Shown here: in pieces, positions 18,367 to 33,298 of the stretch
Numbering within the stretch: the first letter of the stretch is position 1
Layout of the letters: each line of letters starts with the position of its first letter
Source of the DNA: Cyanidioschyzon merolae
Taxonomy: Eukaryota
Reading direction: 5' to 3' (one strand)
DNA: 64,000 nt
Assembly: GCA_000091205.1 (NCBI GenBank)
Contig: AP006496.2
The notes under the pieces: model-generated
Databases searched by the model: none
The model's input: only the letters and a program-made list of their open reading frames with translations
What the model was told of the DNA's origin: nothing
Translations under genes and position numbers: made by a program

Positions 18367-20385
18367 ATGCCGTTTCGGAGAGTGCTCATCGCAAACCGAG
18401 GGGAAATTGTGCGACGAGCAGCCAAAACGCTTCGGAAGCTCAATATCGAGCCTGTTGTTGTTTATACCAAAGCGGATGAAACAGGAACACACGTTCGAGA
18501 AGCAGTCCGAAAGCAGCGAATCGAGTCCTACGTCTCCATAAGCGAGGTCGTTGCTGCAGCTCGCAGGGCACGCGCAGACGCGGTCTTTCCGGGTTATGGC
18601 TTCCTCGCAGAGAGAGCCGACTGTGCAGATGCCGTTCAGCAGGCAGGCATGACGTTTATAGGACCGTCTGCACGTGCCATTGCTCGACTGAGCGATAAAA
18701 TTGAAGCGAAAAAGTTCGTGAAAGCGCTCGGCATCCCTGTCGTGCCGGGTTACGTGGATCCACTTGAGCATGTTGACCACGCAGGCTATATTGCCAGAGA
18801 GCTGGGCTTCCCGGTTGTTCTCAAGGCTGCATCCGGAGGCGGCGGTCGAGGGCTCCGCGTCATCCACCACGAACAGGAGCTGCGTACCCAGTTTGAGGTC
18901 TGTGCTGCCGAGGCGAAACAGGCGTTCGGCGACTCCCGGCTGCTCCTCGAGAAATACCTCGAGCCAGTACGTCACATTGAGGTGCAGATACTCGGTGATC
19001 GCCACGGGAATCTGGTTGTCTTTCCAGAGCGCGAATGCAGCATCCAGCGCCATAACCAGAAGCTACTGGAAGAATCGCCGAGTCCGCTCGTCGATAAGCG
19101 CCTGCGCTGGCGACTCTTCCACGATGCCTCCAGAATTGCGCGTGCTATCGAGTACGATTCGGTGGGGACAGTGGAATTCCTCGTGCATGCGCACACGAAA
19201 GAGCATTTTTTTCTGGAAATGAACGCGCGACTCCAGGTTGAACACGCTGTGAGTGAGGCGGTCACCGGTGTAGACCTCATCGAACACATGATTCGGGCGG
19301 CATCGAACCAGGTTGTCGATCTAGATGAACCCGAGAACATCACCAGACTCGAGTTGGATCACGATCCACCGTTTGAAACGTGCCGAATGCTGCGCTCGCG
19401 AGGCTGGGCCCTGGAGGCGCGTATCTGCGCAGAGGGCTGGTCTGCGGGCTCACTGGTACCCAGTACAGGTCGCCTGCACAAGTTTCGCCTTCCCGTATCG
19501 CAACCTGGGGTGCGCGTCGACAGCGGCTACGATGAGGGCGATTCGGTTTCGCCACTCTTCGACTCGCTGCTGACCAAGGTGATCGCTCACGGAGAAACGA
19601 GAACCGCGGCACGTCGAAGACTGGCTCTGGCGCTCGACGCGTTGCTCATTGATGGCGTCGAGCACACAACAGGTCTGTTGCGGGATATTGTCGCCAAGGA
19701 TGCAGATTTTGCGAACGGGATATACACTACCCGTTTTCTGAAAGATTACGCTCTGCATTTCAACGAGTCCGATGCGCGCAGAGCGCTCCAGCTCATGGCA
19801 AATCGAATGAAGGTCGATCCTGGGACCAAGAAACCGATTGCAGCGCTTACCGTCGAATATGGACTAGTGCGCTTTGACCGGGAGCATGACACGGTGGCAG
19901 GTTCGGTTGCGAGTTCTGGAGCCACAGCGCCGCTGCCTCTGCAGGACAGCGACGGACTTGACGCCCTGTCGGACACGCCCGAGTCGCCGTTGTTCGTGAT
20001 GGCACCACGCAGAGCTCCTCGGCTGCTGTTTCGCGGTATGCCTATCACTGTGCAGCGCCTTTTCGATGAAGACGAGCTGATGCTTTGGGAGCGCATCCGA
20101 AAGCCAGTATCAGCAGCGCCAGTCGAGGCGAATGCTTGGCGAGCCCTGCATGCGCCCATGCCCGGTATACTCGTTGCAGTCCTAGTTTCCGTGGGTGACG
20201 AGGTTCAGCCAAAGCAGCCGGTGGCGATACTGGAATCCATGAAAATGCGGAACATGCTCCACGCTCCATCCTTGCCTCCAGGTGCGCAAACACTTGTCGT
20301 TGGTTCGATTCGCGCCGCTGTAGGCACCGTGCTGCGCAAGGGTGACCTCATCCTCGAGTTTTCCTTACCGACTTTTACGACTTAG
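18367..20385 (+). CDS. Biotin-dependent acyl-CoA carboxylase alpha subunit (MCCA/PCCA-like): biotin carboxylase domain plus a C-terminal biotinyl (BCCP) domain.
   Basis: N-terminus MPFRRVLIANRGEIVRRAAKT. ATP-grasp and biotin-carboxylase motifs (GGGGRGLRV, EMNARLQVEHAVSE). C-terminal biotinyl domain with the biotinyl-lysine motif ILESMKMRNML. Confidence 0.9.
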   Translation: MPFRRVLIANRGEIVRRAAKTLRKLNIEPVVVYTKADETGTHVREAVRKQRIESYVSISEVVAAARRARADAVFPGYGFLAERADCADAVQQAGMTFIGPSARAIARLSDKIEAKKFVKALGIPVVPGYVDPLEHVDHAGYIARELGFPVVLKAASGGGGRGLRVIHHEQELRTQFEVCAAEAKQAFGDSRLLLEKYLEPVRHIEVQILGDRHGNLVVFPERECSIQRHNQKLLEESPSPLVDKRLRWRLFHDASRIARAIEYDSVGTVEFLVHAHTKEHFFLEMNARLQVEHAVSEAVTGVDLIEHMIRAASNQVVDLDEPENITRLELDHDPPFETCRMLRSRGWALEARICAEGWSAGSLVPSTGRLHKFRLPVSQPGVRVDSGYDEGDSVSPLFDSLLTKVIAHGETRTAARRRLALALDALLIDGVEHTTGLLRDIVAKDADFANGIYTTRFLKDYALHFNESDARRALQLMANRMKVDPGTKKPIAALTVEYGLVRFDREHDTVAGSVASSGATAPLPLQDSDGLDALSDTPESPLFVMAPRRAPRLLFRGMPITVQRLFDEDELMLWERIRKPVSAAPVEANAWRALHAPMPGILVAVLVSVGDEVQPKQPVAILESMKMRNMLHAPSLPPGAQTLVVGSIRAAVGTVLRKGDLILEFSLPTFTT

Positions 20386-28803: not shown

Positions 28804-30243
28804 GTGGCGTCCTCCGCTGGTGTGCTAGCAGTGCGACAGATGCGGTGCTTACGCTTTGCAGATGGCCCCTGGAAGCCGTGCTCGTGTGCTTGCTCGTGTC
28901 GAAAGGCGACCACCAAGCGCTCCGCGCAGCGCTCATCTGTGCTGGCTACTGTCGATCCAAGCCGCTGGTTGAACCTGTCGAAGATTAAGGGCGCGCTCTC
29001 TAAGTCGATACAACACTTTCGACCACGGGTATGGAAATTGCTTCAGTTTTCAACGCTTGCGTATGCTGCCGTCGCGGGAGCGACAAGCATGCTGACTTGG
29101 CTCGCCACGCTGCAACCGAGCTTCTCACTCTATGCGCTCGTTCCGTTTACGTATCGTGTGCAGCGCCGACTGCACGCGCTAGCCCTCGACCACCCGGACC
29201 TGGAGACTAAACAATCGCAGCCGGCACCTGCCGTCTCAAAGGACGCCTTGGGTGCAGTGCACCGCGCGAAACAAAAGTTTGCGGATACGGTGCTGAAGCT
29301 GCTACTCGAAACACCGGGTATGCCGCCTGATCTGCAGGTTCAGGTCCATGTGGAGCGCGTACCTGCGAAACCGGCTTACCCAAACGAGCCCGAATTTGTA
29401 TTTGCCATCGACGACGGGCCGCTTTTCCAGACTCGCTGCGTCCAGCGCATAGCTGGACCGGTATCGTCCGAGACCGAGAACCCCTCTTCGTTTGACGTGT
29501 ACGTCTCAGCCGAAATGGAGCCTGCACTCATTCCCGCGGCATTGTCGCATGCTTTGGCGCATGGCGTGGCAAATCATGCGGCTGAGGCACTTAGTGCGCT
29601 CTTTTATGGTGCAGTCCCGTTGAGCGCCTGGCGTCCAAGATGTCTTGTGAACATGATAGCACCTGCTTCGCTGGCTGCTCGCTGGGGAGGCGGCACAGCC
29701 GTCGCTGCCCACTGGGTCGTCGACACCTTGCAGCGCTTCCGCGCGCCCCTTGTGGCGTTGTGCATGCGACCTGTGCAGCGGCGTAACGAATTCGAGGCCG
29801 ACTTGATCGCTGCAACGATACTAGCTCGTATCGGCCTTGATCCTGCGAGCATGCTGGAGCTTCTGCGACACGCCGAGGCCGGTACGACGCTGCGGCTCAC
29901 CAGCGATGACAATGGCGGCCGTCATGCGGTGCACGCTGCAACCTGGAACCGTGACGCGCTGCCCTGGGCTCGCTATCCTTCCATTCAACGTCGCCGGCGT
30001 TCTCTGGAGCCACACATGGAACGTCTCAAGCGACTTGAAGCATTGGTTCAGAAAAGCGAGGGTGCACGAAATCGTCGCATTGCTGTCCTACGAGACCAGG
30101 TGCAGCGGGAGCTGGCTCGTTTCGAGCGTTCATCACGTTCGGCTCCGCAGGCTTCGACCGAACAGGGGCGTGTCTCAGAGCGGCGCAGTGCTGTTTCGGG
30201 AGACGCAAGTCCTGCATGGGGTTCATCCGCACAGGCGCGGTAG
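28804..30243 (+). CDS. Oma1-like M48-family metallopeptidase homolog with the catalytic Glu of the HExxH motif replaced by Ala (HALAH). This is a predicted pseudo-protease.
   Basis: ALSHALAHGVANHAAEAL aligns with Oma1 HEFAHQLARHTAENL, matching the pattern H-x-x-x-H-x-x-x-x-H-x-A-E. The downstream RRNEFEADLIAATILARIGLDPASMLELL aligns with the M48 ETEADYIGL...AGYDP motif. The codon is GCT (Ala), two substitutions away from Glu. Confidence 0.7.
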   Translation: MASSAGVLAVRQMRCLRFADGPWKPCSCACSCRKATTKRSAQRSSVLATVDPSRWLNLSKIKGALSKSIQHFRPRVWKLLQFSTLAYAAVAGATSMLTWLATLQPSFSLYALVPFTYRVQRRLHALALDHPDLETKQSQPAPAVSKDALGAVHRAKQKFADTVLKLLLETPGMPPDLQVQVHVERVPAKPAYPNEPEFVFAIDDGPLFQTRCVQRIAGPVSSETENPSSFDVYVSAEMEPALIPAALSHALAHGVANHAAEALSALFYGAVPLSAWRPRCLVNMIAPASLAARWGGGTAVAAHWVVDTLQRFRAPLVALCMRPVQRRNEFEADLIAATILARIGLDPASMLELLRHAEAGTTLRLTSDDNGGRHAVHAATWNRDALPWARYPSIQRRRRSLEPHMERLKRLEALVQKSEGARNRRIAVLRDQVQRELARFERSSRSAPQASTEQGRVSERRSAVSGDASPAWGSSAQAR

Positions 30244-31882: not shown

Positions 31883-33298
31883 TCAGGGCGCCGCCCTGCG
31901 TGCCGCGGCAGGCGTGTCGCTCAGCAGGAGCCCATCAACATACGCAACGGGGTCAAAGTCGCGCAGATCGTTGAGCTTCTCGCCAACACCCACAAACTTC
32001 ACCGGAATGCCGAGTTCTTCCACCACGCTGACAAGGAAGCCCGCTCGTGCGGTTCCGTCCAGTTTGGTCAGAACAAGGCCAGTAACCTGGACATCGCGAA
32101 GCCACTGCCGCGCAGCTGCCACAGCGTTGCGCCCAGATGGAGCGTCGAGTACCAGCAGGCATTCAGCCAGGGGGCCTTGGATCTGACGCTCCACGACACG
32201 GCGTAATTTCTTCATTTCCTCCATGAGGTTCTCATTCGTATGGAGACGACCGCTGGTGTCAATGATTGCAACGTCATAGCGTTCATCAACAGCCCGTTTC
32301 AGGGCATCGTAGGCTACCGATGCGGCGCTCTTCTGATTCTCGAGCGGCATCGCGATATCGACTCCGGCTCGCTGAGCCCATTCTGCCAGCTGCTGCACCG
32401 CCGCTGCTCGGAAAGTGTCCGCTGCAACGAGTAACACTTTTTTCTTGTCCTGTGTCCGCAGTCGATAGGCCAGCTTCGCAGCGGATGTCGTTTTTCCATG
32501 GCCGTTCGTGCCTACAAGCATCAGCACCTCGCACTGGGGAGAGCCGCTGTGTTGCTGCGCAGCCAATCGTTGTGATTGTATACGTTTCTGCGCGTCAGTC
32601 TGGGCGCGCGTCAGTAGCGCGAGCAGTGACGCGGCGAGCGAGGCCCTGACCTCTGCACCGCTCCGCAGCCTTTGCTCTGCAATGTCCTTTCGCAAGTTCT
32701 CCATCAAGCGATCGACGACGGAGACGCCGAGGTCAGCTCCCAGAAGTGCATTTTCGATATCCTGCATAGCCTGGTCAACCTGGTCCAAACGCCCCATGTT
32801 GCGTTCGACTATGGTCTCGATTTCGCGGCTGAGTCGCTCACGCGTCTTGGTGAGCCCCTCCCGAAACGCGCTCACTTGCGCAGCGTCTCGGACTGCCTTG
32901 TCTCGAACGTAGTCCATAAACTTGCCTTGTTTCACTGCATCGACCAGAGCCTGTTGTTCCTGTCGTGCTTGCTCGCCAAAATTGCGAAGAAAGTCGAAGA
33001 CTCCGGCACGGACACCAAGGGGGCCCTGGAAACCCGGGCTTGTGCTGCGCCTGCAGACCTTCAAGTAACGCGCGACTCGCCAGTCGCTTCGAAACGACAG
33101 TCCGTGCAAGTTTCGAGGTACATGGAAGGAAAACGCTTGCATCGGACGCTCAGTGCCACTTGGGCGGTGCGGGCCCTTCACCACCATTGCGAACGGTGCA
33201 GTGCGAGTGCGAGCACGATGTTCGTCGACCTGCACACACGCGGTAACATCCGTGTGCAATACCGGCTCACGAACGGTTGGTCGTCGCAGCACTGGCAT
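31883..33298 (-). CDS. FTSY: Signal-recognition-particle receptor FtsY-type GTPase (probably plastid cpFtsY).
   Basis: SRP-GTPase N and G domains: G1 LVGTNGHGKTTSAAKLA, G3 DTSGRLH, G4 LTKLDGTARAG, and the closing motif VKFVGVGEKLNDL. Confidence 0.9.
   Translation of the reverse strand: MPVLRRPTVREPVLHTDVTACVQVDEHRARTRTAPFAMVVKGPHRPSGTERPMQAFSFHVPRNLHGLSFRSDWRVARYLKVCRRSTSPGFQGPLGVRAGVFDFLRNFGEQARQEQQALVDAVKQGKFMDYVRDKAVRDAAQVSAFREGLTKTRERLSREIETIVERNMGRLDQVDQAMQDIENALLGADLGVSVVDRLMENLRKDIAEQRLRSGAEVRASLAASLLALLTRAQTDAQKRIQSQRLAAQQHSGSPQCEVLMLVGTNGHGKTTSAAKLAYRLRTQDKKKVLLVAADTFRAAAVQQLAEWAQRAGVDIAMPLENQKSAASVAYDALKRAVDERYDVAIIDTSGRLHTNENLMEEMKKLRRVVERQIQGPLAECLLVLDAPSGRNAVAAARQWLRDVQVTGLVLTKLDGTARAGFLVSVVEELGIPVKFVGVGEKLNDLRDFDPVAYVDGLLLSDTPAAARRAAP

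Follow-up and report, generated by a model that had tools for sequence, protein, structure and literature searches.

A probable pseudo-peptidase of the M48 family in Cyanidioschyzon merolae, without catalytic glutamate and autoinhibitory histidine

Can a member of the M48 metallopeptidase family that lacks the glutamate of its HExxH motif still be a working gene product and, if so, what might it do? The question is raised by an open reading frame (ORF) in a 64 000-nucleotide (nt) stretch of contig AP006496.2 of the hot-spring red alga Cyanidioschyzon merolae (assembly GCA_000091205.1), the whole of which is called the window here. The frame lies at 28804-30243 (+), starts with GTG and codes for 479 amino acids (aa) in the program-made ORF list. 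Within it, the annotated coding sequence, CMN248C, starts 36 nt downstream at the ATG at 28840 and specifies 467 aa plus a stop codon. The ATG-started translation is an exact match to the CMN248C protein of C. merolae 10D, which is labelled 'hypothetical protein', carries the UniRef label 'Peptidase M48 domain-containing protein' and is unmentioned in the literature searched. Residue numbers are those of the annotated protein; the numbers of a preliminary description of this DNA, which had proposed a protease-dead Oma1 paralogue, are 12 higher. Our favoured reading, to which we assign a probability of roughly 0.6, is that CMN248C is a catalytically dead yet functional M48 member of the Oma1/BepA/LoiP type, which binds without cleaving. 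The features on which the argument turns are as follows.

28840..30243, + strand: CMN248C coding sequence (ORF list; identity to BAM81333.1 / XP_005537369.1)
29548..29586, + strand: degenerate active-site helix H237-A-L-A-H241-G-V-A-N-H246-A-A-E249, with zinc ligands kept and the general-base Glu replaced by Ala238 (DNA; four independent alignments)
29785..29802, + strand: N-E317-F-E319-A-D321 motif, in which E317 is the third zinc ligand (BepA E201) and D321 the plug-stabilizing Asp (BepA D205); E317, E319, A320 and D321 are invariant
29971..29994, + strand: degenerate autoinhibitory-plug motif R-Y379-P380-S-I-Q-R-R385, with Tyr for BepA H246 and with P380 and R385 kept (alignments)

The DNA at 29545-29586 reads TCG CAT GCT TTG GCG CAT GGC GTG GCA AAT CAT GCG GCT GAG, which translates as S-H237-A238-L-A-H241-G-V-A-N-H246-A-A-E249. 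The HALAH motif occupies 29548-29562, and the codon for Ala238 (GCT, 29551-29553) is two changes away from GAA or GAG, as the preliminary description had stated. A second motif, N-E317-F-E319-A-D321...L-D-P, follows from 29785 onward. The earlier claim that HALAH is homologous to the M48 active-site helix was borne out, since the Pfam, canonical-profile and hhalign registers agree and HALAH was placed on the canonical HExxHxxxxHxxE in four independent alignments. Pfam PF01435 matched CMN248C with 28.7 bits (gathering score 20.3; E 1.4e-6). An independent hidden Markov model (HMM), built from six canonical bacterial M48 proteins only, with the CMN248C family left out, gave 39.7 bits; its consensus HEvaHvvarHgverls was aligned onto HALAHGVANHAAEALS and its segment sreqElEADriGlellArAGydP onto QRRNEFEADLIAATILARIGLDP. 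In hhalign comparisons, the family profile matched bacterial BepA/LoiP-type M48 (98.7 %, E 1.8e-16, 231 columns) and fungal Oma1 (98.0 %, E 1.8e-13, 172 columns), with HALAH in the same register both times. The lower score against fungal Oma1 arises because the set used spans the C-terminal half of that protein only. A profile search of the Protein Data Bank (PDB) aligned N-E-F-E-A-D to NEQEAD of BepA. Structural comparison with Foldseek against the PDB gave only weak M48 matches (E 0.02-0.1), and NCBIfam gave no match for the C. merolae protein and marginal BepA/HtpX matches for two orthologues. On the agreement of these sequence alignments, the HALAH segment is a homologue of the M48 active-site helix.

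A joint alignment of the family with canonical M48 proteins showed which parts of the active site have been kept. H237, H241, A244, H246, E249, P311, E317, E319, A320, D321, A329, P335 and P380 are invariant, as are P102, T104 and R106, and position 238 is Glu in every canonical M48 sequence aligned. The three zinc-ligand positions of active M48 enzymes (H237, H241 and E317) are thus in invariant columns, and the retention of the two His and the downstream Glu claimed earlier holds, whereas the general-base Glu of HExxH is missing. CMN248C has the M48 family match and the M48 (gluzincin-type) fold, and in MEROPS terms it is a non-peptidase homologue. Its structure and the order of its motifs place it with the Oma1/BepA/LoiP type rather than with Ste24 or HtpX. 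The preliminary description had aligned it specifically to mitochondrial Oma1; homology at the level of the Oma1/BepA type stands, but a particular affinity to Oma1 is not supported, because BepA/LoiP-type M48 is as similar and the profile-profile comparison does not discriminate between Oma1 and bacterial M48 as the nearest subfamily. That CMN248C is catalytically inactive is most likely by analogy with mutants of its relatives: yeast Oma1 with HQxxH loses its proteolytic activity (PMC6894571), BepA E137Q is protease-dead (BepA paper) and ZMPSTE24 E336A was crystallized with an uncleaved substrate peptide (title of PDB 2YPT).

The family to which CMN248C belongs is very small and strongly divergent. 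A profile search through all 1.84 billion cluster representatives returned five proteins at E <= 0.001, three of them in the family, which amounts to three 50 %-identity clusters, and the other two marginal M48 proteins. This exhaustive search found no close paralogue of CMN248C and no member in Galdieria or other red algae, and word-indexed homology searches found nothing beyond the family itself. Four orthologues are available: those of Cyanidiococcus yangmingshanensis (HSLAH; 57 % identity to CMN248C), of an uncultured relative in a JGI metagenome (HSLAH; 58 %), of Cyanidium caldarium (HQLAH; 34 %) and of contig L011 from the Logan assembly of SRR31152685 (HELAH; 35 %). In addition, five environmental C. 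merolae-like contigs (99-100 % identical) have an intact ORF, and all five keep HALAH. Their amino-acid variants fall at five positions, all outside the core formed by active site and lid; four are in segments with a predicted local distance difference test (pLDDT) score below 50, and the remaining one, L68F, is in the anchor helix. The absence of Glu is thus not strain-specific, and, as the preliminary description had argued from the codon, it is no sequencing error, since the five environmental variants and the orthologues in two further genera lack it too.

The position of the gene shows where the Glu was lost. At the window locus the order is clathrin-adaptor small chain (-), M48 (+), SRP54/FtsY-like GTPase (-), small ORF and ABCC-type transporter (-), with the convergent SRP54-type (FtsY-like) GTPase gene at 31883-33298 (-). 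The same order is found in Cyanidiococcus, in the metagenome contig and in Cyanidium; in L011, the HELAH gene is followed by a convergent FtsY-like gene, and the contig also carries a light-harvesting-complex (LHC) gene. Because a positional orthologue still has HELAH, Glu is the ancestral state, and its loss took place in the resident gene rather than in a duplicated copy. The term 'paralog' of the preliminary description must therefore be dropped, given the shared gene order in four other genomes, one of them with HELAH, and the lack of a close paralogue. Within the cyanidiophycean red algae, an active enzyme most likely turned into the pseudo-peptidase at its original locus. The codons at the Glu position are GAG in the HELAH orthologue, CAG in Cyanidium, GCT in C. 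merolae and TCG in the Cyanidiococcus group, and these would fit routes from GAG to CAG on one side and from GAG through GCG to GCT or TCG on the other. The three deep lineages are roughly equidistant, and in this comparison without an outgroup either one or two losses of Glu would fit.

Some further observations concern this locus and its relatives. The conserved gene order extends over more than 10 kb (window 20838-42542; contigs L001, L002 and L012) and comprises genes for a NUDIX hydrolase, a PHD_NSD protein, the clathrin-adaptor small chain, the M48 protein, the SRP54/FtsY-like GTPase, the small ORF and an ABCC-type transporter of ~1800 aa; it holds even though the identity of the M48 protein drops to 34 %. 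L011 (contig 2317 of SRR31152685; 3722 bp, 69.7 % G+C) is gene-dense and comes from a phototrophic eukaryote; the N-terminus of its LHC protein is of red-algal style (...AAFVPGG...). Its distances to Cyanidium and to the Cyanidioschyzon group are about the same, and it may derive from a further cyanidiophycean lineage.

The second loss, which goes beyond the preliminary description, as does the start codon at 28840, affects the C-terminal motif of the M48 domain. This is (S/T)-H-P-x-x-x-R in canonical M48 proteins and R-Y379-P380-S-I-Q-R-R385 in CMN248C. In BepA, the His of this motif, H246, is the fourth zinc ligand, part of an autoinhibitory plug that reversibly blocks the zinc, and D205, P247 and R252 keep the plug in position (BepA paper); the authors of that paper state that human OMA1 and ZMPSTE24 have conserved this His. 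Wherever an alignment extends as far as the C-terminal motif, the plug-His column is filled by Tyr379 of CMN248C (TAT, 29974-29976). The canonical-HMM alignment of the C. merolae protein ends at residue 342, short of the plug motif; in the Cyanidiococcus, Cyanidium and L011 orthologues, the same HMM puts THP on the residue that corresponds to Tyr379. In a bacterial relative (P0024), THP is aligned with the THP of BepA and of its Geobacter homologue 3C37. At the plug position, Tyr is shared by C. merolae, Cyanidiococcus and the uncultured relative, Cyanidium has Ala, and His is confined to the HELAH orthologue; L011 is the only orthologue known with both HELAH and HP intact. The frame of the plug is kept in all members, with P380 corresponding to BepA P247, R385 to BepA R252 and D321 to BepA D205. 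CMN248C thus also lacks the conserved THP His of active M48 enzymes. The general base and the switch His have vanished together, in the same lineages, which argues that catalysis is gone and not rewired, and this is the strongest evidence that the sequences provide. With both residues gone, a switch of the BepA type would be left without a catalytic activity to control.

Selection on the gene was examined among the three closer orthologues. Whole-gene omega is 0.12-0.21 (Nei-Gojobori; synonymous sites are saturated). In the block that starts with the HxxxH helix, includes the lid and ends with the ExEAD helix (aa 221-345), identity is 78-87 %, with a proportion of nonsynonymous differences (pN) of 0.07-0.14 against 0.6-0.7 for synonymous ones (pS). 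The most conserved part is the lid itself (aa 250-310), with 82-89 % identity and a pN of 0.06-0.11 against a pS of 0.60-0.69 in the three orthologues of the Cyanidioschyzon group. The first 60 residues, the linkers at 113-135 and 346-377 and the tail are nearly neutral (pN 0.4-0.6, pS 0.65-0.98). Selection on CMN248C is therefore purifying, and strongest at the former active-site helices and the hydrophobic lid. Such constraint on a former substrate-binding cleft is as expected of a pseudo-enzyme that binds, and it agrees with the earlier proposal of a dead protein that still folds. Replaced catalytic residues, a retained M48 fold, purifying selection and an intact gene in three genera and five environmental variants are all found here together.

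The remainder of the protein provides the context in which a dead M48 domain might act. Its recognizable parts, in order, are listed here.

28840..29028, + strand: basic N-terminal extension (aa 1-63), with 12 K/R and 2 D/E in the first 60 aa; presumed organelle-targeting and stop-transfer region
29029..29112, + strand: single moderately hydrophobic helix (aa 64-91), LLQFSTLAYAAVAGATSMLTWLATL, at the Kyte-Doolittle maximum; presumed membrane anchor
29140..29163, + strand: strand V-P-F-T-Y-R-V-Q (aa 101-108), the counterpart of V-P-x-T-G-R-x-Q in BepA/LoiP/Oma1-type M48 (hhalign to bacterial profile)
29587..29769, + strand: hydrophobic 'lid' (aa 250-310) between the two zinc-ligand helices, the counterpart of the BepA alpha6 lid and ~20 aa longer than in canonical M48
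29983..30141, + strand: C-terminal helical hairpin (aa 382-434; ...HMERLKRLEALVQKSEG...), with helices at 382-405 and 409-434 (conservation and pLDDT)

The N-terminal extension is rich in hydroxylated residues, has Phe at position 6 and is modelled with a pLDDT below 50 for aa 1-41. Identity among orthologues is only 27 %, with pN near pS, and its sole conserved patch is D-P-S-R-W (aa 39-43; nt 28954-28968). The presumed anchor reaches a Kyte-Doolittle maximum of 1.4 over 19 residues, forms part of a long helix (aa 46-91) in the AlphaFold model, and coincides with the segment in which the orthologues have their hydrophobic maximum. The V-P-x-T-x-R-x-Q strand comes after a lipobox in bacterial relatives, and after a lipobox or a transmembrane segment in BepA/LoiP/Oma1-type M48. 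The function of the alpha6 region as a lid is known from BepA (BepA paper). The C-terminal hairpin has a pLDDT of 91-97 over aa 381-430, falling to ~71 at aa 431-434, is 61-68 % identical among close orthologues and contains an invariant MERLKRLE; it may serve as an oligomerization or partner-binding module.

Two of the orthologous gene models appear to lack this N-terminal region in part. The Cyanidium model KAK4538243.1 (JANCYW010000016.1) looks N-terminally truncated, the region concerned being L012:7836-8001; its reading frame continues upstream, where a start at an in-frame ATG near L012:7854 would add ~49 aa including the D-x-S-R-W motif and the hydrophobic helix. The L011 gene call also looks short at its N-terminus (region 1467-1770), and a start at the ATG near 1599, further upstream, would give it a basic extension.

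From these parts a working model can be drawn. CMN248C would be imported into an organelle and anchored there by its one transmembrane helix. The site would most likely be the mitochondrial inner membrane, in the topology of Oma1 with the N-terminus inside and the M48 domain on the far side, although a plastid membrane is possible too; the mitochondrial site is favoured because the order of extension, presumed transmembrane helix and M48 domain matches that of Oma1, which consists of an extension, a single transmembrane helix and the M48 domain. Zinc would still be bound at the retained site, and the dead cleft with its lid may bind extended or unassembled segments of membrane proteins without cleaving them, so that the protein would act as a holdase, assembly factor or scaffold. 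A precedent is that protease-dead BepA mutants keep their chaperone-like activity and still promote LptD maturation (BepA paper). A mitochondrial location and a chaperone-like role of CMN248C are plausible by analogy only.

Several points weigh against the favoured reading. The family is fast-evolving, with 34-35 % identity between its deep lineages as against ~60 % for the FtsY-like neighbour. The HELAH orthologue is no better conserved than those without Glu, so that the loss of catalysis had no visible effect on rate. The candidate anchor helix is only moderately hydrophobic, and the AlphaFold model was built on nine sequences and has a mean pLDDT of 68.7. Finally, D219 (29494-29496), in the strand S-F-D-V-Y-V-S before the HxxxH helix, is Asp in all four proteins without Glu, and is Ala in the HELAH orthologue and Ser, His or Thr in canonical M48. 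This residue could be a compensating acid or simply a lineage marker. The former would suit the view that CMN248C is still a protease, its active site having been rewired around a non-canonical base such as a relocated acid (D219) or a zinc-bound hydroxide aided by Tyr379, and the full retention of the zinc ligands and plug scaffold, as well as the concentration of constraint on the former active-site region, would be consistent with this. However, the replacements vary by lineage, with Ala, Ser or Gln for the Glu and Tyr or Ala for the plug His, which indicates relaxed constraint at both sites rather than new chemistry, and Oma1, BepA and ZMPSTE24 are inactive when their Glu is mutated to Gln or Ala. 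We therefore regard a rewired protease as improbable. The opposite view is that CMN248C has no function, being a gene in decay or an artefact of annotation, whether a relic ORF or an allele due to one strain or to a sequencing error. This view could appeal to its 'hypothetical' label, its faster evolution than the neighbouring gene and its absence from the literature searched. It is scarcely credible in view of an ORF intact in C. merolae 10D, five environmental variants and four orthologues, of an omega that is low overall and far lower in the core, of the conserved synteny, and of an Ala codon two steps from Glu with neighbouring orthologues likewise devoid of Glu; the low omega, the constraint on the core and the intact environmental ORFs led us to reject a pseudogene and a sequencing error.

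Two other views accept a dead M48 domain and differ in what it does or where. CMN248C may be a regulatory subunit, which co-assembles with a membrane protease, a canonical Oma1 or another one, whose gene lies elsewhere, or titrates its substrates. Many pseudo-peptidases regulate active relatives (PMC11266112), and the conserved C-terminal hairpin could oligomerize; however, the exhaustive search yielded only the family and two marginal M48 matches, so that any protease partner would have to be a very distant relative, and C. merolae is described as having very little genetic redundancy (PMC5348525). We consider this role unlikely. A plastid protein of the envelope or thylakoid, with the same lack of catalysis and with its origin in a bacterial, for example cyanobacterial, M48 gene rather than in mitochondrial Oma1, is possible, though still the less expected outcome. 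The profile is at least as similar to the bacterial BepA/LoiP type as to fungal Oma1 in the hhalign scores given above, and a basic extension rich in hydroxylated residues with a Phe also occurs in red-algal plastid transit peptides. Against this, among the 1.84 billion proteins the best match outside the family comes from an exon of mitochondrial Oma1 of a fungus, and the domain order is that of Oma1. That match (P0020/P0022) was itself considered as a canonical Oma1 of the Cyanidiales and rejected: it is fungal, as its intron-split genes, their pectate lyase and HRXXH neighbours and its relatives with the name OMA1 indicate. On the JGI metagenome contigs that carry P0022 (L013-L016), which are eukaryotic, the fungal Oma1 gene has been split by a prokaryotic gene caller and lies near genes for a pectate lyase, a ZIP transporter and HRXXH proteins. 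Short 'proteins' of metagenome catalogues can thus be single exons.

Comparison with known systems places CMN248C most clearly. The closest functional precedent is RF1-Oma1 of sugar beet (bvORF20 and related restorer-of-fertility genes), an Oma1-type M48 protein without the Glu, whose HQVGH has the same E-to-Q change as the Cyanidium orthologue and which acts by binding the mitochondrial membrane protein preSATP6 and not by proteolysis (PMC6894571). RF1-Oma1 is, however, a duplicate, neofunctionalized beside an intact bvOma1 (PMC6894571), whereas CMN248C lost its Glu at the ancestral locus, being the positional orthologue of a HELAH gene with no close paralogue, and additionally lacks the plug His. 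With yeast Oma1 and human OMA1 (MEROPS M48), CMN248C shares the signature HExxHxxxxHxxE ... RxxExEADxIG ... (T)HP in the same order, a nuclear gene, and an N-terminal extension and one hydrophobic helix ahead of the M48 domain, and the fungal Oma1 exon is the closest match outside the family. It differs from them in lacking the catalytic Glu and the THP His, in a lid longer by ~20 aa, in long insertions before the active-site helix and in the C-terminal coiled hairpin, and the equal similarity of the family to bacterial M48 means that orthology to Oma1 is not demonstrable. In the comparison with BepA (YfgC) of Escherichia coli and the Geobacter homologue 3C37, the difference is that BepA is soluble and periplasmic, has a TPR domain and keeps an intact HExxH. 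The engineered substrate trap ZMPSTE24 E336A (PDB 2YPT) has HAxxH in an M48 active site, as CMN248C does, and its peptide-bound crystal shows that Ala at this position is compatible with the fold, the metal site and substrate binding. The FtsHi proteins of the chloroplast import motor (M41) are organellar, membrane-bound homologues of zinc metalloproteases, as CMN248C would be, and were kept for a non-proteolytic role after the loss of HExxH function (PMC11266112), but they belong to a different family (AAA+ M41), are devoid of the zinc ligands too and originated by gene duplication.

The convergent neighbour provides a reference for the rate of change. In the FtsY-like GTPase, C. merolae shares 85-87 % identity with the Cyanidiococcus group and ~60 % with Cyanidium, the corresponding values for the M48 gene being only 62 % and 34 %. 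The M48 family evolves fast with or without its catalytic residues. The window as a whole has a G+C content of 53-62 %, and its ORFs are long and without introns, with short spacers. Away from the locus, an intron-free ORF of 672 aa at 18367-20385 (+) contains biotin carboxylase N-terminal, ATP-grasp and C-terminal domains, with a biotinyl domain at its C-terminus; its product is an ordinary acyl-CoA carboxylase alpha subunit.

Pseudo-proteases are common, but examples from M48 are almost unknown: a 2024 review of pseudo-metallopeptidases covers M1, M12, M14, M15, M16, M24 and M41 and has no M48 entry (PMC11266112), and sugar-beet RF1-Oma1 was the only precedent found. CMN248C would be a genuine, if modest, extension of the list of known pseudo-proteases, independently evolved, and a 'hypothetical protein' gains an annotation at the level of function. 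The single syntenic locus provides a natural series, with Glu and His, Gln and Ala, or Ala or Ser with Tyr at the two positions, and the joint loss of catalytic base and autoinhibitory His supports the view that the switch exists for the control of catalysis. Homologous recombination makes C. merolae genetically tractable, and its proteome is minimal, so that knockout, tagging and 'resurrection' by A238E/Y379H are straightforward. CMN248C could help to tell apart what Oma1/BepA-type proteins do as proteases and what they do in a chaperone-like manner. A bolder suggestion, which we put forward only tentatively, is that CMN248C and its orthologues are the sole Oma1-type genes of Cyanidioschyzon, Cyanidiococcus and Cyanidium, these algae having abandoned Oma1 proteolysis altogether and kept the zinc-binding scaffold, the lid and the frame of the plug for some essential task other than catalysis, for instance as a membrane-protein holdase or assembly factor; the literature searched yielded no inventory of Oma1, M48, Ste24 or HtpX proteins in Cyanidioschyzon. 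If this were true, the locus would be a natural experiment, in which a chaperone-like activity that needs no proteolysis, as observed in BepA and hinted at in Oma1, would prove to be selectable alone.

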